64,000 nt of DNA. Origin: Candidatus Omnitrophota bacterium. GTDB lineage: Bacteria > Omnitrophota > Omnitrophia > Omnitrophales > Aquincolibacteriaceae. The notes under the pieces are model-generated. The model worked only from the letters and a program-made list of their open reading frames with translations, was not told where the DNA came from and ran no database searches. The stretch covers positions 191,150 through 255,149 of the forward strand of contig JAKJDL010000002.1 in assembly GCA_022705945.1 (NCBI GenBank). The letters run 5' to 3'. Shown piece by piece: positions 49 through 14,433 of this stretch. Numbering within the stretch: position 1 is the first letter of the stretch; every line of letters begins with the position of its first letter. Position numbers and translations under genes: made by a program.

Positions 49-705
49 ATGGGAGCAGAAAAGATCAAAAGACTGGTTTTTCGTTTTTTTTCCCGCCTGC
101 TGATCCTTTTCGGGAAGCTCTGGTTCAGGCTGACGGTCCAGGGTTACGAAAACCTTCCGGTGTGCGGGCCCTGCATTTTAACGGCCAACCATCAAAGCTA
201 CCTCGACATTCTTGCGATCGCGATGCTGCTTGACCGGAAAGAGCTTTTGCACCGGACCTCGTGGGTCATCGGGAAGTCCACTTCCCGGAACCCCTTCCTT
301 CGTCCTCTTTTTCTTGTCTCTCCCTTGATCGTCGTGAACGGAACCGTAAGAAAAGCGGAGGCGGAACTGAAGAAAAACCGCATGCTTGTGATCTTCCCCG
401 AAGGTTTTTACGCTTGGCGCAAATATCTTTTTGAGAGGGGAAAAGAGGCGGCGGAGCCCCGGCGGCAGATCGGAACGAGCGCGGCGATCCTCGGCCTCAA
501 GACAGGATGTGAGATCGTTCCTATCGGAATCCGCGGCACTTATGAAGCCATGCCTCCCTACAGCTTTTTCGCGAAACCGGGAAACCTCTGCCTGCGGATC
601 GGAAAACCGTTCCGCTTTGAAGTTCCCGAGCCGGAGGAAATAATGGACGGGATGATCTCAGAGAAGACAAACCGCGTTATAGCCGAGATCGATGCCCTTC
701 GCTAG
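49..705 (+). CDS. lysophospholipid (1-acyl-sn-glycerol-3-phosphate-type) acyltransferase, PlsC-like
   Basis: HxxxxD motif (NHQSYLD), FPEG block, size about 218 aa; RBS GGAAAGGAA before the ATG. Confidence 0.75.
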   Translation: MGAEKIKRLVFRFFSRLLILFGKLWFRLTVQGYENLPVCGPCILTANHQSYLDILAIAMLLDRKELLHRTSWVIGKSTSRNPFLRPLFLVSPLIVVNGTVRKAEAELKKNRMLVIFPEGFYAWRKYLFERGKEAAEPRRQIGTSAAILGLKTGCEIVPIGIRGTYEAMPPYSFFAKPGNLCLRIGKPFRFEVPEPEEIMDGMISEKTNRVIAEIDALR

Positions 706-828
706 GGATCCGGGCGCTCCCGGTTTCCGGTCTTAAGTTCTCCCGTTGTTCCCATTGTTTATTTCGCGCTTTCCCTCAAAATAAAGCTGATTGGGCCGAT
801 AATCTTTGTCAGGATATAGGAGTGTGCA

Positions 829-2409
829 ATGAGCCATCTGGGAGAGCCTTTTTGCGTTCAGGTAAGCCGGATCCTATCGGTCCAGCCGGGAGATATTTTA
901 CGGCTGATGGGGCAGACCGAGATTTTTTTAAAAGACCTTCCGTTCGTCAAGGAATGCCGCCTCATTAGCAGGGAAGGGTATCGTTCCGTGACTTTCTGGA
1001 GGGTCGAGATCGATCACGTTCCGATATCCTGGAAAGAAGAGTCGATTTTTGATCTCCGGAACGGCACCGTATCTTTCAGGGCTCTTGAGGGAGATCTCCG
1101 GGTGCTCGAGGGAGTCTGGAAACTCACGGAATGCCCGCAGGGAGGAACCGAGGTTTGGATCGAGGCGAAGGTCGAGATCGGCATTCCGGCCGTTTTTGAA
1201 AAGGCCGTCGGAGGGATGATCGTCGAAAAGATCCGGAAATTTTTTGAAACAGTTCTTGATTCGATGGAGGAGAGGATCGGTTTCGAGCGTTACCGGCGAA
1301 AGAATGAAAAATCATCCCGCATTTCCGGGTTCGGGGTAATCGGTCACCCCTACAATTATCAGCATTTTTTGAAAAACCTTCATCTCCTCAAGCTCGATTT
1401 CAAAGCGCCTTCACCCGAATTTTTAACCAAGGTTTTTGATCTGACACCTTCCTACATTTCCTACGGCGTGCAGGAGTTCCGTGACTCGGCCGGAAAAACG
1501 ACCCGCGGGGCTTTTATCGCCTGCAATATCATCCCCGAAATGCTCACGGTCGATATCCGGAAAACCGTGGCCAAGGTGGTGGAATCCTGCAAGGTCGCGG
1601 AACGGCACGGGTTCGGGATCGTCGCACTCGGAGGTTTTACATCGATCGCGGGAGAGAAATACGGCGAAGAATTCCTGAAACAGATACATATTCCCGTGAC
1701 GACCGGGAATACGCTGACGGCCGCGCTCGCGGTCGAGGGAGTCCTCAAAGCGGCGCGTCTCATGGAGACCGATATTTCCAAAGCCAAGGTCGCGGTGATC
1801 GGGGGCGCGGGGGATATCGGGAGCGCTTGCGCCCGCGTCATGGCGTTCTCGGCCAAGGAAGTCACGATCGTGAGCCGCAGTCCGGCAAACCTCAGGAAAA
1901 TGGAAAAAGAGATCAAATCGATCCGGCATGCGAAATTTCACGGCACATCGGACGCGGTGAAAGCGGTTCGGGATGCGGATATCGTGATCGGGGCGGCAAG
2001 CTCCCCCCATTCACTTCTGGAGCTCCGGCATTTCAAAAACGGGGCGATCGTCTGTGACGTCGGATTCCCGAAAAACATTGTCTACGGGGACGTGGACCGC
2101 GGCGATATCCTTGTCTTTGCCGGGGGGATTTGCTCGATCCCCTGTGAATTTCAGACCGGCCTTGAGATCGGACTGCCGTCGACCCGGATGCTTTACGGAT
2201 GTTTTTCCGAAGCGATTGTGCTGGCGCTCGAGGAGCGTTATGAGAATTTTTCGTGGGGGAAAGGCCATATTACCAGGGAGAAGATGGACGAGATCCTGGA
2301 GCTTGCCCAAAAACACGGGTTTTCGCTGGCGCCTTTCTTCTGGTCCGGAGGGATTATCACGGACGACGAGGTTCGCGCGATCGGGACGGGACTCAGGGCC
2401 GGGGTTTGA
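829..2409 (+). CDS. SRPBCC (polyketide cyclase/START-like) N-domain fused to an acyl-ACP reductase (AAR)-family NAD(P)-binding reductase
   Basis: C-terminal 350 aa aligns block-for-block with cyanobacterial AAR (FGVIGH, IPEML, ALGGFTSI, TTGNTLTA, VAVIGGAGDIGSA, DVGFPKN, ENFSWGKGHITREKMDEILELAQKHGF); N-terminal 170 aa has an SRPBCC-like pattern. Confidence 0.8.
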   Translation: MSHLGEPFCVQVSRILSVQPGDILRLMGQTEIFLKDLPFVKECRLISREGYRSVTFWRVEIDHVPISWKEESIFDLRNGTVSFRALEGDLRVLEGVWKLTECPQGGTEVWIEAKVEIGIPAVFEKAVGGMIVEKIRKFFETVLDSMEERIGFERYRRKNEKSSRISGFGVIGHPYNYQHFLKNLHLLKLDFKAPSPEFLTKVFDLTPSYISYGVQEFRDSAGKTTRGAFIACNIIPEMLTVDIRKTVAKVVESCKVAERHGFGIVALGGFTSIAGEKYGEEFLKQIHIPVTTGNTLTAALAVEGVLKAARLMETDISKAKVAVIGGAGDIGSACARVMAFSAKEVTIVSRSPANLRKMEKEIKSIRHAKFHGTSDAVKAVRDADIVIGAASSPHSLLELRHFKNGAIVCDVGFPKNIVYGDVDRGDILVFAGGICSIPCEFQTGLEIGLPSTRMLYGCFSEAIVLALEERYENFSWGKGHITREKMDEILELAQKHGFSLAPFFWSGGIITDDEVRAIGTGLRAGV

Positions 2410-2411
2410 TT

Positions 2412-5072
2412 ATGACGGCGCTGGTCACGGGTGGAACGGGATTTATCGGTTCCGCGCTGGTTCGCCATCTGCTTGCGGCCGGTTACCGCGTCCGGGTGCT
2501 GGTCCGCCAGAAAAAAGACAGCCTACTTCTTGAAAACCTTCCCGTGGAGGTGATCAACGGCGATGTAACGAACGCCCGCGCCGTCGACAAGGCCGTGGAG
2601 GGCTGTTCCGTTGTTTTCAACCTTGCCTCGCTTTATGCCTTCTATCCTTTCTGGATGAAACATCCGAAGGCAATCTACAGGATCAACGTTGACGGTACGG
2701 TCAATATGCTTGAGGCTTCGTTGCGCCACGGCGTAAAAAAATTCATTCACACAAGCACCATTGCCGTCCTTAACCGTCCCGTGGATGGCGGTTCCGTGGA
2801 CGAGAACGCCGGCTTTGATCCGCGTGGTGCGAGCCATTATGCCCGATCGAAATATCAGGCCGAACGGGAAGTCCTTAAGTATTATTCCCGCGGATTGCCG
2901 GCCGTGATCCTGAATCCGGCCGTTGTATTCGGGGAACGCGACCACAAACCGACCCCGTCGGGGGACGTGATCGTGAAATTCCTGAACCGGAGTTATCCCG
3001 GTTATTTTGATACCCTTTGGTCCGTGGCCGATGCCGACGATGTCGCAAAAGCTCATCTTGCGGCCGTGGAGCGGGGAAAGGCGGGCGAGAGGTATATCCT
3101 TGCGAGCGGCGGGCATTACACGCTGAGGGAGATCTTCGGAATACTTGAAAAAATCACCGGGATCAAGGCGCCGCGTCTCCGGATTCCTTACGCAGTTCTT
3201 TTTAGTTTCACTTACCTTGAAGAAGCCGTCGCGTATTTTCTTTTCAGGACCAAGCCGCTTATAGCGACCGAGGGCGTGAAGTTCTGCAAAGCATCCCTTC
3301 CATGTGACGGCTCCAAAGCGATTCGGGATCTCGGATATGCGCCGACGCCGTTTGAGGAAACACTTGCCACGGCCGTCGCCTGGTACCGGAAGAACGGTTA
3401 CGTGGAGCCGAGAGGTTTTTTCCGGATCAGAACCCACGGGTCACGTCTCGTCCGTTTTTTGATGCGCCGGCTGGGTATGGCAGGTTATACGGACAGATTG
3501 AGCCCGGGAACAATCTTTTTTTTCGGCATCGTCAAGCTGCTGAATCTGCTCAAAAAGGCCGGGGCCGGGCGGGGCGAGGACGGTTGGAGGAAGGTGACAC
3601 AGTGTTATCTGAGGACGGAGCAGGCCAAATTTATCCTGACGGTCTTCAATCTGGATTTTCGCTCGGATCTGAAAACAAAAAACGAAATGACCTGCGACGA
3701 TGCCAAACGGCATTTTATTCGGAGATTCGCAAAGTTTCTGAAAACCCAGCCGCTTTTTTGTCAAAAGCTCGAATGGCACAGGTTCTGCGCGAAGTCGGGG
3801 CCGCAGCCTTTTGCGGATATCGTTCAGGCCGAGTTTGACGCCTCCGGAAATCTTCTGCGCTTTGAACCCCGGTTCGATCCGGATGACGAACGAGGGAGGT
3901 TCGAAGCTATGCCGACCGAGCTCAAAGAGCTGCTTTTTGAGGGTCTGCGTCAGGTTTACAACGCTACCCTCGAACTTCCGGATAAAAAACGGCCGCTTCG
4001 TCTCAAAGCGGAGTGGCACCGATGGCTCTCGAAACATTCCGGCTGTTTTTCTGGCGAATGGTTCAAGCGCGCGAAAGAATTGGGCGAGCGTGTGATGAGC
4101 GCCGCATTCATACGTTTTGAGACGCTGCCGGCCGGGCTTTCCGCCCGGGGTTCCGGACGTTTCCGGGTTCCCTGGTTCATCCGTTCCAAACATCCCGGCT
4201 ACGGTCCGCTCACCATCGTGTGCCGCCTGACGCCGGACCTTGAAGCGGCAGACATCTGGATTCAGTTTAGCCATGTGCCTGTTGACGGGGTCCCGGCCCA
4301 GGAAGTGCTGAACAAAATAAAAAAGGAATGGGGGACGAAGGGTGATCTTCCGTTTCCGGCTTCCGGATACCGGCAGGATATGACCCCGGAGGTGTGTTCT
4401 TCCGGCCGTACCGCTGACGGGACCGTGCATGTCTATCAATGTCTTGATTTCCAGCCTTTTCTTCAAGTGAGGAATCAGCTGAACAAACGTTTTGGAGGCC
4501 GCGCGAAGCAGGTGATCTCCTCGGCGGCGCTCCTGATCTGGAAGCTCTCCCAATACCGCGAATTTGAGGACATCAAGTTCGCGGTGCCGGTGGATCTGCG
4601 TGCGGCGGGGGGAAGGGAGCGGACACTCGGTTTTATCTTCATCCGTCCGGCTGTCTATTTTGACAAACAACGCGCCGACCGCGGATTTTTTTCATTCCAA
4701 CAGGAATTTAATCGCCAGCTCTTTTCGGCCCGTAAGCGGCGCGGCGAGAGCTACCGCCTTCTTGAAATTTACACGGCGGCCCCGCACGCCCTTTATGCCG
4801 TGACCGCAAAATTCCTTATGAGGCCTCTCCAGGATTTTGTCGGCTCGCTCGGGATCACGATTATCAAGAAGGCCGATTTTTTTGTGGCGCCGGCAAGCGA
4901 TGTTCATACGGACGGTTTTATCGCGTTCAGCAATTTTACGCTTCCTTCCGAGGACGGCGGGAAAGTAGGCGTCGTTAGCATGAAGGGGCCGAGGGAAAAG
5001 GTTGAAAAATACATGAATGTTCTTCATGATGTCATGCACAGGGCGATCCGGCGCGATGAACTCTATTTTTGA
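2412..5072 (+). CDS. bifunctional protein: N-terminal NAD-dependent epimerase/dehydratase (extended SDR, 3beta-HSD-like) reductase + about 500 aa C-terminal domain with an HxxxDG acyltransferase-like motif
   Basis: TGGTGFIGS Rossmann motif and YxxxK (YARSK) in the first 340 aa. C-terminal region contains IWIQFSHVPVDGVP, which resembles the catalytic HHxxxDG of WS/DGAT, PapA5 and condensation-domain enzymes. ATG at 2412 is 2 nt after the upstream stop; the track start at 2253 lies inside the upstream gene. Confidence 0.65.
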   Translation: MTALVTGGTGFIGSALVRHLLAAGYRVRVLVRQKKDSLLLENLPVEVINGDVTNARAVDKAVEGCSVVFNLASLYAFYPFWMKHPKAIYRINVDGTVNMLEASLRHGVKKFIHTSTIAVLNRPVDGGSVDENAGFDPRGASHYARSKYQAEREVLKYYSRGLPAVILNPAVVFGERDHKPTPSGDVIVKFLNRSYPGYFDTLWSVADADDVAKAHLAAVERGKAGERYILASGGHYTLREIFGILEKITGIKAPRLRIPYAVLFSFTYLEEAVAYFLFRTKPLIATEGVKFCKASLPCDGSKAIRDLGYAPTPFEETLATAVAWYRKNGYVEPRGFFRIRTHGSRLVRFLMRRLGMAGYTDRLSPGTIFFFGIVKLLNLLKKAGAGRGEDGWRKVTQCYLRTEQAKFILTVFNLDFRSDLKTKNEMTCDDAKRHFIRRFAKFLKTQPLFCQKLEWHRFCAKSGPQPFADIVQAEFDASGNLLRFEPRFDPDDERGRFEAMPTELKELLFEGLRQVYNATLELPDKKRPLRLKAEWHRWLSKHSGCFSGEWFKRAKELGERVMSAAFIRFETLPAGLSARGSGRFRVPWFIRSKHPGYGPLTIVCRLTPDLEAADIWIQFSHVPVDGVPAQEVLNKIKKEWGTKGDLPFPASGYRQDMTPEVCSSGRTADGTVHVYQCLDFQPFLQVRNQLNKRFGGRAKQVISSAALLIWKLSQYREFEDIKFAVPVDLRAAGGRERTLGFIFIRPAVYFDKQRADRGFFSFQQEFNRQLFSARKRRGESYRLLEIYTAAPHALYAVTAKFLMRPLQDFVGSLGITIIKKADFFVAPASDVHTDGFIAFSNFTLPSEDGGKVGVVSMKGPREKVEKYMNVLHDVMHRAIRRDELYF

Positions 5073-7284
5073 TCCGAATCAGTATTACTGGAACGTGTAT
5101 GCGCTCCCGCATTTCATTGTCGGGGTGCTTATCATACTTGAGGGTCTGTTCGTGTTCCTTCAGGGTAAACGGACCGTCACACACGTTGCCTACGCGATCA
5201 CGAATTGGACGGCGGGTATCTGGCTTACCGGGGTCGGGATCGTCTGTTCAATGACGGATGAGACGGCGGCGGTCATTGTTTCGCGCTGGTACACCTGGTT
5301 CGGGATCATTTTTATCACGCCCGCCGTTTATTTTTTTATCGCATCGTGGGACCCCGGATTCCTCAGGCGCAAGGCGAAATGGGTCGTGATTCACTATTTT
5401 TGCGCACTTGGCTTTTATCTCGCCTGCGGCCTCACGCCCTGGATCGTTGCGACGGTGTATCCGTATTCGACCGGTTTTTTCCCGAAGGCCGGCCCTCTGG
5501 AAGGGGTGTTCATCGTTTGGTTCTATGCGCTCATGATTCTTTCGTTCGCCAATTTCATGCGGATTTGCCGGAAGGCCGATACCCCTATCCTCAAGAAGAA
5601 TACAAAGCTTATGTTTGTTGCCTATGCGATTGCCTTCCTCGGCTCCATCGAATACCTGCCCAATTACGGAATCCATATTTTCCCGGTTGCGTTCCTGCCG
5701 ATGTTTGTTTTCACGACAATCATCGGCTACTGCGTGATCCGCTACCGCCTCATGGATATCGAGACCGTGATCCACAAAACGGTCATGTGGTTTGTGACGA
5801 GCGCCGTGGCCGTGCTTCCCTTTGCCGGGATCATCTCTTCGGTTCAGCCGATGATGAGGGATTTGAAGCCTGCGGCCGCGGGATTTTATTTCCTGGCGAT
5901 GCTTTTCATTTTCTATTTTTATTACCGCGCCGTGCAGCCGCGTCTCGACCGCCTCTTCCAGTGGCGGCAGACGAACCTGATGGCCGTTCTCGACGGGTTT
6001 TTGAGTGAGCTGGTCCACCTCAAGAATATCCGCGATCTCCTTCAGAGCTTCTCGCGTCTGATGCGCCGTGAGCTTTTTGTGAGGCGGCTTTCGGTTTATC
6101 TTTATGATGAGCAGTCGAAACACTTTGTCCCCGCCATCGCGAAAGGGATCCGCAGTCTCCGTCCCGTGCCCCAGGGAAGCCGATTGCTTCAGTGGCTTGC
6201 GGAGACCGACGGAGCCGTGATCGGTGAGCTTGCCGTGAGCGATCCTGCGGTCGACGAGTTCCGTTCCGAAATGGAAAACTTTTTTTCTGATACGGGCACC
6301 CTGGCCGTATTGCCCTTTGTGCTGGGCGACCGCCTGATCGGCTTTGCGAACCTCGGGAGGAAAAGTAACCTGCGCCGCTACGGTTTCAACGAGATCCGGT
6401 TCCTGAACCGCCTCAAGGTGCCCGTCACGATCGCTCTTTCAAATTCGATGCGGTATGAGGATATCCGCAAGCTTTCCGACGAACTCCAGCTCTGGAACCA
6501 GGCTCTCGAGGAGCGCGTCGACCAGAGGACGCGCGAGCTCGCGAAGACGCAGGAACAGCTCGTGCAGGCCGAAAAGCTCGCGACGCTCGGAACGCTCGCG
6601 GGCGGAGTCGCGCACGAGATCAATAACCCCCTCACGGCGGTACTCACAAACGCGCAGATCCTCCGTATGAGCGCACGGGAGGACGATATCGAATCGATCT
6701 CCCTGATTGAGGAAGGTGCGAAACGATGCCAGGGGATCGTACACAAGCTCATGAAATACGCCCGGAAAACCACTGAGGAAGCGCCTTTGAAAGCGATTGA
6801 TCTTGGCGAGGTTGTGAAGGGAACGGTGGCTCTTCTGGGTTTTCAATTCAAACAGGAAAATATTGAGGTCAAAACGAGGCTTGCGAAGACCCCGCCCGTC
6901 CGGGGAATCGCGGGGGAGATTGAGCAGGTCCTCACGAACCTTCTTGTGAACGCGAAAGACGCGATCCTCGCGGTCCGTCTCCCCGCATCTGCGGGGAATA
7001 CGGCACCCGGGCAGGGAAAGATCATCATAGAAACCCGCAAAGCTCCGGATGCGGTCGAGCTGATAGTGACTGACGACGGCGCGGGTATCCCTAAAGAAAA
7101 TCTTAAAAAGATATTCGATCCTTTCTTTACGACCAGGGATGTCGGCGCAGGCACCGGGCTCGGCCTTTCGGTCAGCCTCGGTATCCTAAAGCGCCACGGC
7201 GCCGCGATTTCGGTCGTGAGCGAGCCCGGCCGCGGCTCCGCCTTTACCATCCGGTTTCCCGATCAAGATCCTGTCTCAAAATGA
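5017..7284 (+). CDS. sensor histidine kinase (N-terminal 7TM sensor, GAF-like, HisKA, HATPase_c)
   Basis: 7 predicted TM helices, HEINNPLT H-box, N/G1/G2 boxes (DDGAGIP, GTGLGLS). Start is ambiguous (5017 or 5056) and overlaps the upstream stop. Confidence 0.85.
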   Translation: MFFMMSCTGRSGAMNSIFDPNQYYWNVYALPHFIVGVLIILEGLFVFLQGKRTVTHVAYAITNWTAGIWLTGVGIVCSMTDETAAVIVSRWYTWFGIIFITPAVYFFIASWDPGFLRRKAKWVVIHYFCALGFYLACGLTPWIVATVYPYSTGFFPKAGPLEGVFIVWFYALMILSFANFMRICRKADTPILKKNTKLMFVAYAIAFLGSIEYLPNYGIHIFPVAFLPMFVFTTIIGYCVIRYRLMDIETVIHKTVMWFVTSAVAVLPFAGIISSVQPMMRDLKPAAAGFYFLAMLFIFYFYYRAVQPRLDRLFQWRQTNLMAVLDGFLSELVHLKNIRDLLQSFSRLMRRELFVRRLSVYLYDEQSKHFVPAIAKGIRSLRPVPQGSRLLQWLAETDGAVIGELAVSDPAVDEFRSEMENFFSDTGTLAVLPFVLGDRLIGFANLGRKSNLRRYGFNEIRFLNRLKVPVTIALSNSMRYEDIRKLSDELQLWNQALEERVDQRTRELAKTQEQLVQAEKLATLGTLAGGVAHEINNPLTAVLTNAQILRMSAREDDIESISLIEEGAKRCQGIVHKLMKYARKTTEEAPLKAIDLGEVVKGTVALLGFQFKQENIEVKTRLAKTPPVRGIAGEIEQVLTNLLVNAKDAILAVRLPASAGNTAPGQGKIIIETRKAPDAVELIVTDDGAGIPKENLKKIFDPFFTTRDVGAGTGLGLSVSLGILKRHGAAISVVSEPGRGSAFTIRFPDQDPVSK

Positions 7285-7742
7285 TCCCGGAAACCGGGTC
7301 ATGGAAGTATGAAATAGCGTCAGGCTCTGAAAGGGCCGTAATCCATGAAACCGTATGGTTTTTCCGCCCCTCGTTTTGGTTTTTGTAGTTTTTTTCTGGG
7401 GCTCCTAATTTGGTTAAAACGAGATGACCTTATTGGAAAAACATTTTTTATTTTTACGGTTTTTATTGGTGGGCGGGGAGTGCTTTTCGGCTTTGATTTA
7501 TTTGTGCCTATATTAATAAAAGAGATAAATGCTTGTGAAACCGCCTCTCGTCTTGTCGCGGGTAAAGCTGGGCTATGGGGGAAACTCGAAAAGCGATCCG
7601 GATACAGTTATCTGGGGTTTTGTACCCGGCCCTTCAACTCAGCGCCCCCAAATCAGCTTAACCCGTTGATCGGATTACAGTTAAATTTCTAAATACCGAT
7701 ATAAGTAGAGGGGAAGGGTGTGTTCAACGCGAGGATTTCAAT

Positions 7743-8279
7743 ATGAAAAAAATACTGGTAATAGATGATGATGTTCTTGTCCTGAGGGCGATCAGCAAGT
7801 TGCTTACGATGAACAATTACAACGTGACAGAAGCTAAATCCGGCGAGGAGGCGGCGGGAATATTAAGTAGTGCCGATTTTGATTTAATAGTGTCCGACAT
7901 TAGGATGGCGGGGATGGACGGGATTCAGCTTGTTGAACGTTTGAGGAGTTCCGGCAAGAACACGCCGGTGATTTTCGTGACGGGGTATGCGAGCGAAAAT
8001 GCGCCGGTGGAAGCTTATCGGCTTGAGGTTAAGGACTATGTGTTGAAACCCTTTGATAAGGATGATTTGCTTCGCAAAGTCGAAAAGAATCTGGCTCTTC
8101 GGGAAGCGGAATTTGCAAAAAAGGGTGATTTGTGTCGAACCGTGCGTGGCTTGGTGAGAGATTTTGAAAAAAACAATAGCATGAATATTTACGAAAATGA
8201 AAACCTGAAGAAGTTTATCAGCGAACTCAACGCTGCGCTTTTTGCAGAGGAAAAAGAGCAGGCAAAAAAGTATGAATAA
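7743..8279 (+). CDS. response regulator, stand-alone receiver domain with C-terminal coiled-coil tail
   Basis: KILVIDDD..., D at the phospho-site (LIVSDIRM), conserved T/K (FVTGY, LKPF); no DNA-binding output domain. Confidence 0.85.
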   Translation: MKKILVIDDDVLVLRAISKLLTMNNYNVTEAKSGEEAAGILSSADFDLIVSDIRMAGMDGIQLVERLRSSGKNTPVIFVTGYASENAPVEAYRLEVKDYVLKPFDKDDLLRKVEKNLALREAEFAKKGDLCRTVRGLVRDFEKNNSMNIYENENLKKFISELNAALFAEEKEQAKKYE

Positions 8280-9186
8280 TAGAAAGTTGGGATTTTTTTT
8301 GAGCGTTCTTCGGAAAGAGGCGAATTATTTTTGGGAGCGGCTGGTAGTTTTTTCAATTCGGGTAAGATATCGCTATTGGCGGCGTTTATTATGCCGAGTT
8401 GTTGGCAATGCGACATCTCTTGCGGCTCTGTATTACCGTGTTTTTAGACGCCTAAGATTTCGCACAATTCGGTTGTTTGTGTTTTTTGTTTGGAAATTGT
8501 GGCTGGATAAGGTTGAGGGGTTTGAGAATATTTCCTGGAATGAATCTGCGGTTATCGTTTCAAATCATCTCAGTTACTATGATTTCTTTGTTTTGGCGTC
8601 TGTTCTTGAGCGTCAAACCGTATTCATTGCTACCAAAGGGCTAAATGACAGATCGTTTGTGGGATGGTTTATGAAACTGGACACGATTGTTTATGTTGAT
8701 CGCGAAAAGCCGGGTTACGGTTTTTTTAAGGAAATGGTCAGGCAGACGAAGATGAAAAAAAATGTTGTCATCTATCCTGAAGGAACGAGGTCCCGAAGCG
8801 GAAAGATGTTGGCCCCCAAACCGGGATTTATCAAATTGGCGCTTCTTTGCGGAGTGCCCGTCATCCCTCTGGCGATGCGGGGTACTTATGAAATTCTTCC
8901 GCCGCATGAGCATGTTCCCAAGATGAAAAAGTGCAGCATTCATATAGGCGAGAAGCTTTATATTTCACCTTCCAATCCGCTTTTTCGGGATGTTTTTTAC
9001 CGTTGCGCGAAGGATGGCAAGTATACGAATCTGACAGACGAAGGGATCGAAGAAATTGCATTCCGGATTATGAACCGGATCAGGTTAATGTCCGGGCAGG
9101 AGTGGGATGAAAGCGCTCTCCCCAAGGCCAGATTATACGGTCTTGCGGATGCTTCGCCGAGGGCGGTCGAGTTTTGTTGCCAATGA
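8272..9186 (+). CDS. PlsC-like lysophospholipid acyltransferase (second copy)
   Basis: NHLSYYD (HxxxxD) and PEGTRSRSG blocks; ATG at 8272 chosen (the track TTG at 8242 overlaps the RR stop). Confidence 0.8.
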   Translation: MNNRKLGFFLSVLRKEANYFWERLVVFSIRVRYRYWRRLLCRVVGNATSLAALYYRVFRRLRFRTIRLFVFFVWKLWLDKVEGFENISWNESAVIVSNHLSYYDFFVLASVLERQTVFIATKGLNDRSFVGWFMKLDTIVYVDREKPGYGFFKEMVRQTKMKKNVVIYPEGTRSRSGKMLAPKPGFIKLALLCGVPVIPLAMRGTYEILPPHEHVPKMKKCSIHIGEKLYISPSNPLFRDVFYRCAKDGKYTNLTDEGIEEIAFRIMNRIRLMSGQEWDESALPKARLYGLADASPRAVEFCCQ

Positions 9187-9836
9187 AAAAGGCGGCCTTT
9201 TTTGATGTCGATGGCACGCTGGTTGCATGCCAGTCGCAAAAAAAATTTTCCGATTTTTTATTTTCAGAAAAGATACTCGGAGTTTTCCACATTCTTGTAA
9301 TCTCCTGTTGGTTTGCGGGATATCGGCTTGGACTGTTAAGAAGCAGCATTGGCATGAGAAGAGTTTTTTATCGGTTCCTTTCTTTTGATTCGGCCGAGCG
9401 CGTAAACAATCTGATGATAAAGGCATATCAGGATCTTATCCGTCCGGCATTAAACCTGTTCCTGAAAGAGCGTATTTTGGGTCTGAAAAAGCAAGGCTAT
9501 TTGATTGTTCTGCTTTCAGGGACCCTTCAGCAGTTTTGCAACCTGATTGCGGATGAGTTTGGTGCGGATCAAGCTTTCGGGACGAGGCTGATCGTAGAAG
9601 ACGGACATTTCAGAGGGAAATGGGAGGGAGACATTTTAGAAGGAGAGGCAAAGGCCAGGTTTGTGAAGAAATATTCCAAGGCGAATGACATCAGTTTGGA
9701 ACAGAGCATCGCTTATAGTGATAGTTCGGCGGACTTGCCTCTTTTGGAGATTTGCGGTTCTTCCGTTGCGGTCAATCCTGACCCGGCTCTTAAAACAATC
9801 GCTCAATCGCGCTCCTGGGAAATTTTGAATGGCTAA
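9183..9836 (+). CDS. HAD-superfamily hydrolase, subfamily IB (phosphoserine-phosphatase-like)
   Basis: FFDVDGTLV motif I, S/T motif II (LLSGT), K and DSSAD motif III/IV; ATGA overlap with the upstream acyltransferase stop. Confidence 0.75.
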   Translation: MKKAAFFDVDGTLVACQSQKKFSDFLFSEKILGVFHILVISCWFAGYRLGLLRSSIGMRRVFYRFLSFDSAERVNNLMIKAYQDLIRPALNLFLKERILGLKKQGYLIVLLSGTLQQFCNLIADEFGADQAFGTRLIVEDGHFRGKWEGDILEGEAKARFVKKYSKANDISLEQSIAYSDSSADLPLLEICGSSVAVNPDPALKTIAQSRSWEILNG

Positions 9837-12141
9837 TCTTCTGGAACAATACCTGTTGGCGTCGGTACTTACGGCAATCCTGACATTTTTTTTGGCCGTT
9901 CTTGTCAGCTGGAAGAACTACAGGCGGAAGTTGAACATCCTGTATTCGTTTTGGGCGTGCACAGTTGCCCTGTGGAGTCTGATGCTGGTTTTCAACGTGC
10001 TGGCTAAAGACCACGGCACGGCTTTACTATGTGTACGGCTGCTTCATTTCTGGGCGATCCTCCTGCCTGCGGTATATGTTCATTTTGTCTTGCTCTTTCT
10101 CTGCAAGGACGCGGCATTCAACGCGCTTATTAAGGGGACGTATGCCTTTTCGTTTTTACTGATTGCGCTGAATTTCTCACCCTGGTTTTTGTCTGTCGAA
10201 TATCGGGAGAAATTTCGTTTTTTTGCGGCGAAACCCCTCGCTTTTTACCCCATACATATAGCGATGTTCATTGCCTGTGTATGCTTCGCGATCATACAGC
10301 TTTATCTCAGCTGGCGAAAAGCCGAGGGCAGTTTCAAACGGCAGATCTGGTACTTTTTGCTGGCAACCTTAATTGGATATTCGGGCGGGATCACGAATTA
10401 TCTGATTAATTACAACATCCTTATCTATCCTCTTTATCCGTTTGGAAACTTCACAATTTGCGCTTATGTCATTGTGATCGGTTTCGGTATTCTCAAGTAT
10501 CAACTGATGGATATTTCCGTCATCATCAAGCGGACGGTGGTTTTTACTGGGCTGTTCGGTATTTTAATGGCTGTGGTGGGGATAGTTACGACGCTTGCTC
10601 ACAACTATTTGGGACAATTTATCGGGATCGGGCAGACAACACGTCAGATACTGAGCATCCTCATCGCGATGCTGCTGGCTGACCCGATCAGGAAGCTTCT
10701 GGTCAATCTCACGGACAGGTTCCTGTTCCAGAAAAAATATAATTATCACAAGCTCCTGAAAGACGCTTCGCGGGGGATGTCGAACATCGAATCCCTCGAG
10801 CACCTGCTCGGCCTTGTGGTCCATTTCGTGACGATGAAAATGCGCGTGAAGAACGCGTCGGTGCTGATGCGCGACATCCATTCGAGCGATTTCAATCTCG
10901 TTTACCAGCGCGGTTACGACAAAAAATTCCTTTCACTGACCCTGAATGACGAGGATCCGCTGATTGACTATATCGGGCATCATAAGGAGGCGGTCGATAT
11001 CGAGAGGATCAAGGAGAAGATCGAGGCGGCGCGCTACGGACGCAAGGATAAAAAAGAGGCCGATCATTGGGACTATGAGGCGATCCGGGACAGGATGATC
11101 TACCTGCAGGCGACCTGCTGCGTGCCGAGCTTCCTGGGTCGCGAGCTCAAGAACATCCTGATGCTTGGAGAAAAAAAATCGGGCGAACATTACTCTACTG
11201 AGGACCTGAACCTTCTTTACACACTCGCGCAGGAATCCGCTATCGCGATCGAGAACGCGCGGCTCTATGACGAGGCAAAGCGCCGCTCGCTTGATCTCGA
11301 ACAGATCAACGATCAACTTGAGCGTTCACGGGGCCTTTTAGAGCGCGCGCTAAACGAGGCCGAAGGTGCCAATAAACAGCTCCAGGACGCGCAGGCCCAG
11401 CTCATCCACGAGCAGAAGATGGCGACCCTGGGACGTCTGGCGGCTTCGGTCGGTCATGAGGTCAATAACCCGCTCACGATCCTTTCGATGAACGTGTCTC
11501 GCGCGATACTCAAATACCGCAAAGATCCGGATCTCAAGGTCTCCGAGATCATGGATGTGTTCGACAAGATGGAGAAAAATATCGAGCGCATCAAGGCGGT
11601 CGTGAATACCCTCACGGGGCTTCTCAAAAAGTCGGAGAAAGGGAAGTTTGAACCGCTTTCGCTCAAGCTGATCCTGGAAGAGACGCTTCCGCTCGTTCAG
11701 TTTCAGACCTATCTCGATAATCTTTCCGGGACGGAAGTGGATTTCAATGTGCCTGGCAATATCCCGCTCATCCGCGGCGACCTGGAGCGTTTGCAGGAAG
11801 TTTTCCTTAATATGTTCATCAACGCCTATCACGCGATGGCGGGCAAGCGTCACCGGAAGATCGCGGTGCGAGCCGAGATTGATCAGGAAAATCAGGGGAT
11901 GGTCGCGATCCATTTTACCGATAACGGCTGCGGGATGACGGAAGAGGTCCGGAAGAAAATTTTCAATTACGGGTTCACGACGAAGCCCTCCGGCAAAGGG
12001 TCCGGCCTCGGGCTTTACATGTGCAAATATATTATCGAGCTGCACGGCGGCACGGTTTTGGTGAAGTCGCGTCTCGGCGAAGGGACGACGTTTACGCTTA
12101 CGCTTCCGGTGTATGGGGAAGACTTTAAAATCAGCTCATAG
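9829..12141 (+). CDS. sensor histidine kinase, paralog of 5017..7284 (7TM sensor, GAF-like, HisKA, HATPase_c)
   Basis: Same architecture and shared blocks (YQLMDISVIIKRTV vs YRLMDIETVIHKTV; HEVNNPLT). Start overlaps the HAD stop by 8 nt. Confidence 0.85.
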   Translation: MANLLEQYLLASVLTAILTFFLAVLVSWKNYRRKLNILYSFWACTVALWSLMLVFNVLAKDHGTALLCVRLLHFWAILLPAVYVHFVLLFLCKDAAFNALIKGTYAFSFLLIALNFSPWFLSVEYREKFRFFAAKPLAFYPIHIAMFIACVCFAIIQLYLSWRKAEGSFKRQIWYFLLATLIGYSGGITNYLINYNILIYPLYPFGNFTICAYVIVIGFGILKYQLMDISVIIKRTVVFTGLFGILMAVVGIVTTLAHNYLGQFIGIGQTTRQILSILIAMLLADPIRKLLVNLTDRFLFQKKYNYHKLLKDASRGMSNIESLEHLLGLVVHFVTMKMRVKNASVLMRDIHSSDFNLVYQRGYDKKFLSLTLNDEDPLIDYIGHHKEAVDIERIKEKIEAARYGRKDKKEADHWDYEAIRDRMIYLQATCCVPSFLGRELKNILMLGEKKSGEHYSTEDLNLLYTLAQESAIAIENARLYDEAKRRSLDLEQINDQLERSRGLLERALNEAEGANKQLQDAQAQLIHEQKMATLGRLAASVGHEVNNPLTILSMNVSRAILKYRKDPDLKVSEIMDVFDKMEKNIERIKAVVNTLTGLLKKSEKGKFEPLSLKLILEETLPLVQFQTYLDNLSGTEVDFNVPGNIPLIRGDLERLQEVFLNMFINAYHAMAGKRHRKIAVRAEIDQENQGMVAIHFTDNGCGMTEEVRKKIFNYGFTTKPSGKGSGLGLYMCKYIIELHGGTVLVKSRLGEGTTFTLTLPVYGEDFKISS

Positions 12142-12338
12142 CTATTATCTCTTGGTGAAGTTTCTGAGTTTTTGCTATAAGCTATTGACTGCAGGATATC
12201 AGGCTGTTGAAGCGGCCAAAATGCTGAAACGGTTTGATCAGAGCGAAAAAACCTGGCCGGTAGCCTGTGGCAAATTCCGCAGGTTTGGGGTTATCGGTCT
12301 CAAGCTAAGGACCGTCGGCTATAAGCTACGGGTTGCAT
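12133..12338. repeat. intergenic repeat family, copy A (AGCTCATAG...TTTTTGCTATAAGCTATTG... plus a GGTTATCGG / GTCGGCTATAAGCTA unit)
   Basis: Shares its core with the copies at 12695, 13349 and 14254; starts at the HK stop codon. Confidence 0.7.
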
Positions 12339-12339
12339 A

Positions 12340-12696
12340 ATGAAAAAAATCCTGATCGTTGACGACGAGACGGGCATCGTCGAGGAGATCAAAAGTTTCC
12401 TCGCCGAGGAGGGTTATGAAGTGAGGACTGCGGATACCGCGAAGTCGGGGATCCAGGTCCTCGAGGAAATGAACCCGGACGTCGTTTTCATTGACGTGAA
12501 GCTTCCGGATATGTCCGGGATCGAGGTGCTCAGGTTCGCGAAGGAAAAGCATCCGCGGACAAGGACGGTGATGGTCACAGGATATGTGGACCAGAACCTG
12601 ATGGATGAAGCGGAGTCGCTTGGGCGGGACGCGTTTCTCCAGAAGCCCTTTGACCTTATCAGGATCGTGGAAGAAATCGAGTGCCTCACGGCGTAG
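12340..12696 (+). CDS. response regulator, stand-alone receiver domain
   Basis: KILIVDDE, phospho-Asp (VFIDVKLPDMSG), T (MVTGY), K (QKPF); 118 aa. Confidence 0.85.
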   Translation: MKKILIVDDETGIVEEIKSFLAEEGYEVRTADTAKSGIQVLEEMNPDVVFIDVKLPDMSGIEVLRFAKEKHPRTRTVMVTGYVDQNLMDEAESLGRDAFLQKPFDLIRIVEEIECLTA

Positions 12697-12800
12697 CTCA
12701 TGGTCAAGAATCCTCGGTGAATATCTTTTTGATTTTGCCGCAAGCTATTGGCTATAGGTTGTCAGCCGAATGCTGTTGGCTACAGGTTATCGGCTAACCC
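12695..12800. repeat. intergenic repeat family, copy B
   Basis: AGCTCATGGTCAAGAATCCTCGGTGAATATCTTTTTGATTTTGCCGCAAGCTATTGGCTATAGGTTGTCAGCC...GGCTACAGGTTATCGGCTAA. Confidence 0.7.
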
Positions 12801-12814
12801 CGGAGTAATGCCCG

Positions 12815-13357
12815 ATGAATTTTATTCGCACGGAAATAGACGGTGTTGTGATCATTGACCCGAAGGTTTATTCGGACGCGCGGGGTTTCTTCTTTGAAAG
12901 CTACCGCCGGGACATTTTTTTCAAAGAGGGGATCGTGGAGGAATTTGTCCAGGATAATTACAGCTCGTCCCGGAAGGGGGTGCTCCGGGGGCTTCATTTT
13001 CAGATTGAGCCGGAGGCGCAGGCGAAGCTTGTGCGGGTGACGAGGGGTTCGGTTTTTGATGTTGCCGTGGACCTGAGGAAGGGTTCAGGAACGTTCGGGA
13101 AATATTGCGCGGTGACGCTCTCGGCCGAAAACAAAAAGATGCTTTATATTCCCAAAGGGTTCGCTCACGGGTTTTGTGTGCTGGAAGACAACACCGAGTT
13201 CTTCTATAAATGCTCCGGATACTATTCGCCCGCGCACGAGCGAGGGATCATCTGGAATGACCCGCAGCTTGCGATCCCATGGCCGAAGCTCAACTGCGAG
13301 TTCATCCTTTCCGATAAGGACAGGAAGTATCCCACCCTGGAAGCTTATAGCTCATAG
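12815..13357 (+). CDS. rfbC: dTDP-4-dehydrorhamnose 3,5-epimerase
   Basis: Cupin-type RmlC signature (DPKVYSDARGFFFE, GLHFQ, KGFAHGF). Confidence 0.9.
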   Translation: MNFIRTEIDGVVIIDPKVYSDARGFFFESYRRDIFFKEGIVEEFVQDNYSSSRKGVLRGLHFQIEPEAQAKLVRVTRGSVFDVAVDLRKGSGTFGKYCAVTLSAENKKMLYIPKGFAHGFCVLEDNTEFFYKCSGYYSPAHERGIIWNDPQLAIPWPKLNCEFILSDKDRKYPTLEAYSS

Positions 13358-13410
13358 CCAAGAACCTTCGGGAAGTGTTTTTGGGATTTCGCTATCAGCT
13401 GATTTTCGGG
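13349..13410. repeat. intergenic repeat family, copy C
   Basis: AGCTCATAGCCAAGAACCTTCGGGAAGTGTTTTTGGGATTTCGCTATCAGCTGATTTTCGGGG; supplies stop codons to both convergent genes. Confidence 0.65.
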
Positions 13411-13837
13411 GCCGGATATTCCAGCTGTGGGGGAGTGTGACGGGGGCCTTATGCCTGATCTCGACGGGGAAGGTTTTTTTGAAGGTATCATAGAAGCACA
13501 TGCCGGATTCTTTGTGGCAGTAATAGAAAACACCCGTCAAAGTTACGTTCGTTTTTCCCGGGGAACCCCGAAAGAGCAGCTTGTAGGGCGGATTGAACGG
13601 GCTGAAATCCTTGCCACATGTCCGGCCGAAATTGACAATCGAAGCGTCCTCCGAACTGCAACTGAGTTTATAGGGGGAATCCGTTGTGAACTGATATCCC
13701 TCGGGAAGGCTGAAGCGGAGGGCGATTACAGAGGGCTCACCCTCAGGCGTTTTCCCCCGGTCTTTCGGTATCGTGAGGATCAGGAAGAGGGCGACGGCGC
13801 CTGTAGCCAAAACAGCGAAAAGCATCTTCGTTTTCAA
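13352..13837 (-). CDS. hypothetical signal-anchored/secreted protein
   Basis: N-terminal hydrophobic helix (MKTKMLFAVLATGAVALFLILTIP); the last 15-19 codons run into repeat copy C; AT-rich divergent promoter region upstream of its start. Confidence 0.4.
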   Translation of the reverse strand: MKTKMLFAVLATGAVALFLILTIPKDRGKTPEGEPSVIALRFSLPEGYQFTTDSPYKLSCSSEDASIVNFGRTCGKDFSPFNPPYKLLFRGSPGKTNVTLTGVFYYCHKESGMCFYDTFKKTFPVEIRHKAPVTLPHSWNIRPRKSADSEIPKTLPEGSWL

Positions 13838-13965
13838 GAAAACTCCTCCGTCCCTAAAATATTTTATCGCTGCGCCTGTCAGGAAAGTTTAAAATAGTGT
13901 CGCTATGCGCGAAATATTCATAAAATATTATCGTCAAGGATTATTTTATTCCAAACCCTAATTTT

Positions 13966-14011
13966 CACCCACTCCAACACCCGGGCCTAAGTCCCGGTGT
14001 TGGAGTGGGTG
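13966..14011. promoter_or_regulatory. near-perfect 19-20 bp inverted repeat (hairpin, 7-nt loop)
   Basis: CACCCACTCCAACACCCGGG-cctaagt-CCCGGTGTTGGAGTGGGTG, immediately upstream of the RBS/GTG of the DUF167 gene. Confidence 0.5.
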
Positions 14012-14027
14012 AGAGGATGGAAAAGCG

Positions 14028-14246
14028 GTGAAGATTACGGTTACGGTGAAGGCGAATTCGAAAGAGGAGAAAATCGAGGAAACCGGCCCCGGGGAATATC
14101 GCTTGCGGGTCAAGGCCCCGCCGGTTGAGGGCCGTGCGAACGAGGCCGTGATCAAACTTCTCGCCGCTCATTTCGGGGTTCCGAAGAGCCGTGTCGAGAT
14201 CCTGGCGGGCACTTCCTCAAAACGGAAGCTTGTGAGTATCGGATAG
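14028..14246 (+). CDS. DUF167/YggU-family small protein
   Basis: VEGRANEAVIKLLAAHFGVPKSRVEILAGTSSKRKLV matches the YggU consensus; GTG start with a GAGAGGA RBS. Confidence 0.8.
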   Translation: MKITVTVKANSKEEKIEETGPGEYRLRVKAPPVEGRANEAVIKLLAAHFGVPKSRVEILAGTSSKRKLVSIG

Positions 14247-14253
14247 TTCGCGC

Positions 14254-14340
14254 AACTCACAGCCAAGAATCTTCGACGAATACTTTTTTGATTTTGCTAT
14301 ACAGGCCTCAGGCTGTCGGCTATATACTGCAGGCTGAGAG
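14254..14340. repeat. intergenic repeat family, copy D
   Basis: AACTCACAGCCAAGAATCTTCGACGAATACTTTTTTGATTTTGCTATACAGGCCTCAGGCTGTCGGCTATATACTGCAGGCTGAG. Confidence 0.7.
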
Positions 14341-14416
14341 AGTTGAGGGTTTGAATCTGCAGACCGCAGTCGCAGGTTTGTTTCCGCAATCGTTATGCAA
14401 TGCCCGTTGAACGTTG

Positions 14417-14425
14417 TGCTAGAAT
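14417..14425 (+). promoter_or_regulatory. extended -10 promoter element (TGcTAGAAT), 8 nt upstream of the ATG; leaderless candidate
   Basis: TTGAAC at 14407 is too close to act as a -35. TAGAAT ends 8 nt before ATG 14434 and there is no SD. Confidence 0.4.
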
Positions 14426-14433
14426 AAAAAATC

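Follow-up and report, generated by a model that had tools for sequence, protein, structure and literature searches.

What does a homolog of the cyanobacterial acyl-ACP (acyl carrier protein) reductase, AAR, do in a bacterium outside the context of alkane synthesis, and which genes work with it? The question is raised by a stretch of 64,000 nucleotides from a Candidatus Omnitrophota bacterium (contig JAKJDL010000002.1, positions 191,150 to 255,149 of the forward strand), referred to here as the window. An earlier reading made from the sequence alone (the sequence-only reading) had described three genes, g1 to g3, encoding a PlsC-like acyltransferase, an SRPBCC-AAR fusion and a short-chain dehydrogenase/reductase (SDR) of the extended type fused to an HxxxD acyltransferase-like domain, here called module X. 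They were proposed to form a wax-ester-like operon. Our analysis indicated that the conserved core consists of SRPBCC-AAR and a membrane histidine kinase, HK1, encoded downstream, and that SDR-X is one interchangeable module between them. The features of the cassette are as follows.

49 to 705, + strand: g1, PlsC/LPLAT-family acyltransferase (PF01553), 218 residues, accessory member
829 to 1323, + strand: g2, N-terminal SRPBCC (START/Bet v1-like) hydrophobic-ligand-binding domain (PF10604/PF03364, PDB 2d4r)
1324 to 2409, + strand: g2, C-terminal acyl-ACP reductase (AAR, COG5322) homolog (TIGR04058, PDB 6jzq)
2412 to 3416, + strand: g3, N-terminal extended SDR of Gox2253/HpnA type, catalytic T114, Y143 and K147
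3417 to 5072, + strand: g3, C-terminal module X, an unclassified family with a two-lobed CoA-dependent (HxxxD) acyltransferase fold
4272 to 4289, + strand: predicted catalytic motif of module X, H621-V-P-V-D625-G626 (codons checked)
5056 to 7284, + strand: HK1, multi-pass membrane histidine kinase with GAF, HisKA and HATPase_c domains (Pfam)

Genes g1 (49-705), g2 (829-2409) and g3 (2412-5072) all lie on the + strand at the coordinates first proposed. The stop codon of g2 (TGA, 2407-2409) is followed after 2 nt by the ATG of g3 at 2412, the true start of an 886-residue protein; an open reading frame (ORF) opening at 2253 is an upstream extension of g3. The description of these genes as co-directional and tightly spaced thus holds for the strand and for g2-g3, but g1 and g2 are 123 nt apart and therefore not tightly spaced. 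The start codon of HK1 (ATG, 5056) lies within g3 and the two genes overlap by 17 nt. Closing the cassette at 5072 had left out this kinase, which turned out to be its most conserved partner. Strongly hydrophobic segments are absent from g2 and g3, and at least six are found in residues 13-288 of HK1. Matches to Pfam, TIGR04058, PDB and structural models agreed on the four domain identities of the sequence-only reading (PlsC, SRPBCC-AAR, extended SDR and HxxxD acyltransferase). As a general feature of the window (1-64000), nearly all long ORFs are on the + strand and the cumulative GC skew climbs steadily throughout, consistent with a single replichore with strong gene-strand bias.

The AAR-family region of the 526-residue g2 protein spans residues 168-499. 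It matched TIGR04058 (9.2e-49) with 166.6 bits, which does not reach the curated cut-off of 449.7 bits, and it matched the N-terminal region of PigE on a par with this (4.7e-50). Judged from these scores, g2 is an AAR homolog, not a TIGR04058 equivalog. Residues 219-499 aligned with the Synechococcus elongatus AAR structure (PDB 6jzq, 1.7e-36), placing Cys458 (codon 2200-2202) on the catalytic residue Cys294; the NADPH motif reads GGAGDIGS. Both Cys458 and the motif residues G325, G326, G328, D329, I330 and G331 were unchanged in 17 of 17 homologs. A route from thioester to aldehyde through an acyl-enzyme on this cysteine has been described for AAR, and has been proposed for PigE- and KecF-type domains (PMC10829540, PMC6498172). 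The N-terminal domain (residues 9-150) gave weak matches to PF10604 and PF03364, under their gathering cut-offs, and a match to the START-like protein 2d4r (1.6e-6). The fusion of this domain to AAR was kept in more than 100 homologs with PF03364 among the matches listed. In agreement with the sequence-only reading, no aldehyde-deformylating oxygenase was found among the annotated neighbours within 12 kb, and a tblastn search of the 64-kb window with an approximate query gave chance-level matches only.

The N-terminal part of g3 (residues 1-331) was identified as an extended SDR by its matches to PF01370 (3.5e-40), TIGR03466 (9e-98) and the structure of Gox2253 (PDB 3wj7, 4.8e-62). The Rossmann-fold glycines G7, G10 and G13, together with T114, Y143 and K147, were invariant in homologs, as expected of an extended SDR. 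Its score against the HpnA model TIGR03466 was 327.1 bits, under the cut-off of 367.65, and no hopanoid biosynthesis genes were found among the annotated neighbours of the cassette, which are AAR, kinase and PlsC genes.

Module X could not be assigned by sequence comparison. The 551-residue module gave no match in Pfam at E-values up to 1 (including PF03007, PF06974 and PF00755), none in NCBIfam up to 0.1, and none against PDB sequences, whether a single sequence or a profile (E-values up to 10) was used; ten distant members of the family also gave no Pfam match. Structural comparison of the model returned choline acetyltransferase (15.9; 406), the PapA5-like enzyme AzeD (15.7), 2-oxoacid dehydrogenase E2 cores (about 14-15), carnitine palmitoyltransferase 2 (14.4; 403), condensation domains of nonribosomal peptide synthetases (best 14.4, 4jn3), the Marinobacter wax ester synthase/diacylglycerol acyltransferase (WS/DGAT; 14.2), PapA5 (12.7) and chloramphenicol acetyltransferase (CAT; 11.9), and X also resembled BAHD enzymes. 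In the model, the motif comes after a strand (613-619) and before a helix (626-640), as in CAT-fold enzymes. Matches to several member families and the position of the His/Asp motif after a strand confirmed the predicted fold as that of the CoA-dependent (CAT-like, HxxxD) acyltransferase superfamily, so that the C-terminal HxxxD acyltransferase of the sequence-only reading stands at superfamily level. The likeness to WS/DGAT holds in part: the two-lobed CAT-like fold is present, but X is not a WS/DGAT member by sequence, and its closest structures are choline/carnitine acyltransferases. Residues H621, D625 and G626 showed no change among 33 full-length homologs or among 11 diverse X modules; before the histidine (S620) most members have Ser, and the others have Cys, Asn, Gln or His. 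Motif and model position make H621 the predicted catalytic histidine. We infer that, within the superfamily of chloramphenicol/carnitine acyltransferases, condensation domains and WS/DGAT, X is the first member to be recognised of a family for which no model exists. The full-length g3 model had a pTM of 0.86, suggesting a compact two-enzyme unit.

What the data show are the domain families, the conservation of their catalytic residues, the fold adopted by X and the linkage of the genes; from these we propose the following pathway. By homology, a fatty acyl thioester (acyl-ACP or acyl-CoA) would be loaded onto Cys458 of g2 and reduced with NADPH to a fatty aldehyde, and the fused SRPBCC domain may hold or pass on the hydrophobic product. 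The Gox2253/HpnA-type SDR of g3 would then turn the aldehyde into a fatty alcohol. Fold, motif and context suggest that X, with His621 as general base, would transfer an acyl group from a thioester onto this alcohol to give an alkyl (wax-type) ester. The g2-g3 cassette would be co-transcribed, and translationally coupled, with HK1; SDR-X would be one of several interchangeable tailoring modules between SRPBCC-AAR and a constant partner kinase, and PlsC (g1) an optional accessory. We consider that there is roughly an even chance that the cassette converts a fatty acyl chain to aldehyde, alcohol and ester in this order. With SRPBCC-AAR directly upstream of SDR-X in all 13 assessable loci, the aldehyde-to-alcohol-to-ester logic of the sequence-only reading is plausible, and a wax ester would be its predicted product.

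To place the cassette in a wider context, SRPBCC-AAR was used in a profile search, which returned 265 metagenome loci; the best 80 of these were analysed. Kinases were counted in the 73 loci with at least 1.2 kb of downstream sequence. An HK1-type kinase was encoded downstream of SRPBCC-AAR in 67 of the 73. In 44 loci it followed the AAR gene directly (within 350 nt and with nothing between) without SDR-X, and in 14 of the 73 SDR-X lay between AAR and kinase. The slot between the two genes held other enzymes elsewhere: an SDR alone (L104), an SDR with a flavin oxidoreductase of the GMC family (L068, the latter at 3952-5460), a GMC oxidoreductase alone (L102, 2926-3960; L105, 3941-5248), a B12-binding radical SAM protein (L087, 8616-9800; L096, 4057-5559), a class III aminotransferase (L094, cassette at 7001-12090) or a class III aminotransferase with a GNAT acyltransferase (L034, cassette at 7001-14565; L060, cassette at 1360-8974). 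ORFs in L098 and L101 match the radical SAM genes of L087 and L096 in position and size (size match only). Since the kinase is found in 67 of 73 loci and the slot is variable, the conserved core is SRPBCC-AAR plus the membrane kinase, and SDR-X is one interchangeable module. The slot occupants also support an aldehyde intermediate, since aldehydes or alcohols are the substrates of transaminases, GMC oxidoreductases and SDRs alike. Cassettes with an aminotransferase, with or without GNAT, pair reductase and transaminase as PigE does, but unfused, and their product would be a fatty amine or an N-acyl amine.

A further observation at the slot concerns L096, where a nucleotidyltransferase/HepT-like toxin-antitoxin pair (3245-4078) is inserted between the AAR and radical SAM genes; ORF pairs of the same size are found at this position in L098 (4971-5804) and L101 (8589-9422), matched by size only.

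About 46 clusters are close to the fused SDR-X protein; those that are named, and the contigs examined, belong to Omnitrophota. SRPBCC-AAR was encoded directly upstream of SDR-X in all 13 distinct loci with upstream sequence, the window included, over which X identity ranged from 35 to 76%. The recurrence of this arrangement in every related locus examined indicates that it is not due to chance. SDR and X are separate, adjoining genes in L006 and L007, and the pair is therefore a functional one and not an assembly artefact. Farther upstream the context is not conserved: RND pump genes and two small proteins are found in relatives of the window, and unrelated genes elsewhere.

In all assessable SDR-X loci an HK1 ortholog is encoded directly downstream of the cassette, often overlapping it. 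These are full-length orthologs with 30-77% identity, and the membrane sensor region is conserved as well. Only two kinases of the HK1 type are present in the 64-kb window, so the adjacency of AAR and kinase is not a by-product of kinase density. Chance adjacency in a kinase-rich genome was ruled out by this count and by the full-length orthology of the downstream kinase. The genes after HK1 encode, in this order, a receiver protein, another PlsC-type acyltransferase, a phosphatase of the HAD-IB type and another kinase. The first of these is a possible partner of HK1:

7743 to 8279, + strand: response regulator with a receiver domain (PF00072, 2.6e-31)

The same order, with a single-domain receiver after the kinase genes, was seen in L001, L004, L005 and L006. 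In the window, the second PlsC-type acyltransferase (8242-9186) overlaps the gene for the HAD-IB (phosphoserine-phosphatase-like) hydrolase (9174-9836); this pair, lying between the receiver gene and the second kinase, is absent at the matching position in the related loci examined. In L005, the kinase and receiver genes are followed by a ketoacyl synthase, an acyl carrier protein and a 4HBT thioesterase (14467-16472), which might supply a dedicated acyl-ACP substrate.

The constancy of the kinase raises the possibility of a signal synthase-receptor pair, in which SRPBCC-AAR would make an aldehyde-derived lipid, SDR-X would tailor it to an alcohol ester and HK1 would sense it. The chemistry would be as proposed above and only the role would differ, the system being quorum-sensing-like with a signal chemistry varied by module swap. 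This role is in keeping with the presence of the kinase in 67 of 73 loci (direct in 44) and the conservation of the whole kinase, sensor region included. It is also in keeping with overlapping start and stop codons in the window and several other loci, and with a slot that varies among SDR-X, SDR, GMC oxidoreductase, B12-radical SAM and aminotransferase with or without GNAT. An adjacency that is no density effect, given two such kinases in the window, speaks for it too, as does a VUPS-type kinase directly upstream of an alpha/beta hydrolase-X gene in Victivallaceae (L023, and L027 by tblastn). Precedents are phcB-phcS, cqsA-cqsS and rpfF-rpfC, in which a gene for a lipid-modifying enzyme likewise lies beside a co-oriented gene for a multi-pass kinase; the phcB-phcS signals are 3-hydroxy fatty acid methyl esters, thus fatty acid esters. 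This likeness is one of gene arrangement, and no homology is claimed. However, sensing of the product by HK1 is purely hypothetical, and enzyme-kinase operons fit feedback control of a membrane lipid equally well. The nearby response regulators are receiver-only, with no DNA-binding output seen, a long-chain wax-type ester would be poorly diffusible, and the lifestyles of Omnitrophota are largely obscure. We therefore put the signal role forward tentatively. An envelope role, in which a specialised lipid is made under the control of the kinase, remains beside it.

Module X was also found outside the cassette. A search of 1.84 billion cluster representatives with an X profile identified 303 family members, either standalone (about 500-550 residues) or fused, forming about 300 clusters at 50% identity. 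Among species-representative genomes, X occurs in Omnitrophota, Victivallaceae and metagenome-assembled genomes (MAGs) labelled Planctomycetia. In distant members the fusion partner of X is an N-terminal alpha/beta hydrolase (PF00561) and not the SDR, and no AAR is encoded nearby; such loci are L016, L017, L018 and L021 (Omnitrophota or 'Planctomycetia' MAGs) and L022, L023, L027 and L029 (Victivallaceae). The contigs of two distant standalone proteins (P0296 and P0260) are shorter than 2 kb and hence gave no gene context. In L016, L017, L018 and L021 a convergent gene of 376-394 codons adjoins X. The two products scanned, from L017 and L021, are PF07993 'male sterility' thioester reductases (about 1e-47) of the fatty acyl reductase (FAR) type. 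The L017 reductase is the last gene of a minus-strand operon (11232-16264) encoding an inositol-1-phosphate synthase, a CDP-alcohol phosphatidyltransferase, two PlsC proteins and a GtrA-like protein, which resembles a pathway to inositol phospholipids that has a reductive, possibly ether-linked, branch. In the Victivallaceae loci L023 (5074-7071) and L027 (5070-7037) a histidine kinase with multiple transmembrane segments is encoded directly upstream of hydrolase-X. In L023 the kinase differs from HK1 in its sensor domain, of the VUPS (vitamin-uptake-like) type, and overlaps hydrolase-X by 4 nt; that of L027 was recognised solely by tblastn. This association with a kinase is a second one for X, independent of that in the cassette. 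X therefore has two independent links to acyl-thioester reductases, of which the FAR-type neighbour also fits an aldehyde intermediate, and recurrent links to membrane kinases.

These neighbours bear on whether the product could be a storage wax, made by a non-orthologous replacement of FAR and WS/DGAT, with PlsC directed toward related glycerolipids. A reductase, a second reductase and an HxxxD acyltransferase follow the logic of such a pathway, X adjoins FAR-type reductases elsewhere, and non-orthologous replacements in wax ester pathways are known, for example FcrA (PMC11948995). The conserved pair is, however, AAR and kinase and not AAR and acyltransferase: SDR-X is found in only 14 of the 73 assessable SRPBCC-AAR loci, the aminotransferase/GNAT and radical SAM alternatives in the slot are not makers of storage lipids, and X is not a WS/DGAT by sequence. 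The finding of HK1 in 67 of 73 loci, direct in 44 without SDR-X, argues against simple storage-wax synthesis. Because most SRPBCC-AAR loci are without any acyltransferase and nearly all keep the kinase, we consider bulk storage unlikely. An ester, if made, would more probably be a specialised lipid with an envelope or regulatory role, tied to the sensor.

The PlsC gene g1 matched PF01553 at 6e-16, with 58.9 bits against a cut-off of 23, and its translation contains the HX4D motif (H48-D53) and the FPEG motif of the PlsC/LPLAT family. A PlsC gene is the direct upstream neighbour of SRPBCC-AAR in the window, L004, L006, L020 and L036, and in 20 of the 65 metagenome loci that could be assessed; in L035 this position is held by a thiolase, and in other loci by unrelated genes. 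This frequency makes PlsC an accessory and not a core component. The genes proposed as co-conserved are so for g2 and g3 (13 of 13 loci), but not for PlsC. Two outcomes that would have refuted the sequence-only reading, a C-terminal domain unlike HxxxD acyltransferases in fold and genes that do not stay together in relatives, were thus not observed. A closed three-gene operon of g1 to g3 was rejected, as PlsC is optional and the kinase is part of the unit. Two other genes were seen around PlsC. A second, far more divergent AAR-like gene, with 23-30% identity, lies upstream of SRPBCC-AAR in L087, L096, L098, L101, L102, L111 and L115, giving two AAR paralogs per cassette; it precedes PlsC in six of these seven loci, L111 having no PlsC match. 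A FadL/Toluene_X-type outer-membrane channel is encoded directly upstream of PlsC in L004 (2354-3667) and L006 (2165-3463), the two most divergent SDR-X loci, and weak FadL-like matches occur near the cassette in L059, L072 and L079.

An upstream PlsC would also have a place in the remodelling of ether lipids or glycerolipids. AAR and SDR would together be the equivalent of a FAR, PlsC would acylate a glycerol or dihydroxyacetone phosphate (DHAP) backbone and X would join or exchange chains, in a scheme likened to the eukaryotic FAR/GNPAT logic. The position of PlsC in 20 of 65 loci, the FadL-type channel in L004 and L006, and the L017 operon, in which the FAR-type neighbour of X comes last after two PlsC genes, a CDP-alcohol phosphatidyltransferase and an inositol-1-phosphate synthase, are consistent with this scheme. 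Against it, the cassette has no alkyl-DHAP synthase or PlsA/Ger homolog, PlsC is dispensable in most loci, and CAT-fold enzymes, as a superfamily, carry out acyl transfer and not alkyl exchange. An alkyl-DHAP-synthase-like role of X was likewise judged unlikely given its CAT fold. We consider ether-lipid synthesis by this cassette very unlikely.

Several observations weigh against the proposed sequence of aldehyde, alcohol and ester itself. No tailoring enzyme lies between AAR and kinase in 44 of the 73 loci, and it may be the aldehyde as such that counts, or else a pathway encoded elsewhere. The score of g2 against TIGR04058 (166.6 against 449.7 bits) means that neither substrate nor chain length is set by homology. 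The SDR also matches OleD (7e-33) and SdmB (1e-58), and its family includes sugar epimerases, 3-ketoreductases and sterol C4 decarboxylases; with so many other activities in the family, its substrate need not be a plain aldehyde. A weak point is the comparison with Gox2253, which reportedly has aldehyde reductase activity on C7-C10 aldehydes (Yin et al. 2014). Module X is at least as close to choline/carnitine acyltransferases and to E2 cores as it is to WS/DGAT, and has SHxxxDG instead of HHxxxDG, so its acceptor could be other than a fatty alcohol. The host is uncultured, and the pathway chemistry is a prediction from its genes.

Comparison with known systems helped to define what is new. 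The AAR from S. elongatus (PDB 6JZQ/6JZU) has in common with g2 the catalytic cysteine (Cys294/Cys458) and the GxGDIGS motif, but g2 has an added SRPBCC domain, an Omnitrophota host, a sensor kinase as partner and no aldehyde-deformylating oxygenase partner. The AAR-like domains of PigE, KecF and PP_2782 share the COG5322/AAR fold outside alkane synthesis and combine reductive release of an aldehyde from a thioester with subsequent transamination (PMC6498172, PMC10829540). Thus an AAR outside the alkane context, as seen here and stressed by the sequence-only reading, is not new as such; what is new would be the pathway variant and, within a known superfamily, the family of X. A likeness to PigE is seen in the sister loci L034, L060 and L094, where a class III aminotransferase directly follows SRPBCC-AAR. 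In the window, by contrast, AAR is unfused to the next enzymes, which are an SDR and an acyltransferase and not a transaminase, and no polyketide synthase genes are nearby. Compared with FAR and WS/DGAT (AtfA; Marinobacter 6CHJ), the reductases of the cassette belong to other families, the acyltransferase is fused to an SDR and linked to a kinase, and X has no PF03007 or PF06974 match and carries SHxxxDG, not HHxxxDG. The best structural matches of X, choline acetyltransferase (1Q6X), carnitine palmitoyltransferase 2 (2DEB) and carnitine octanoyltransferase (1XL7), with 7-12% identity, are eukaryotic enzymes that acylate small quaternary-amine alcohols, and X has no PF00755 match. The SDR differs from Gox2253 (Gluconobacter oxydans, 3WJ7) and HpnA in its fusion to an acyltransferase and in its non-hopanoid context. 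Within the library consulted, our literature search found no description of the SRPBCC-AAR fusion, its near-universal kinase pairing, the SDR-X fusion or the X family, and nothing relevant on AAR in Omnitrophota or joined to SRPBCC, or on waxes, alcohols or ether lipids of Omnitrophota.

If the pathway is correct, it would represent a third bacterial route to fatty alcohols and esters, in which an AAR-type reductase is combined with a Gox2253-type SDR and with a new family of HxxxD acyltransferases, beside FAR/WS-DGAT and the recently described FcrA (PMC11948995). It would provide a first functional handle on an acyltransferase family for which there is no Pfam or NCBIfam model, and a gene-level lipid prediction for an uncultured and poorly understood phylum. 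With less confidence than in the pathway, SRPBCC-AAR and its kinase could form a previously unrecognised, phylum-wide Omnitrophota lipid signalling cassette, with lineage-specific signals obtained through swapped modules. SDR-X would then yield an alcohol ester and aminotransferase/GNAT an N-acyl amine, GMC oxidoreductase and B12-radical SAM would be further modules, and X would be a new acyltransferase family dedicated to signal tailoring. Collectively, the near-universal coupling of AAR and kinase and the swappable slot between them lead to a concrete hypothesis, namely lipid-derived signalling or sensor-controlled envelope remodelling in Omnitrophota.

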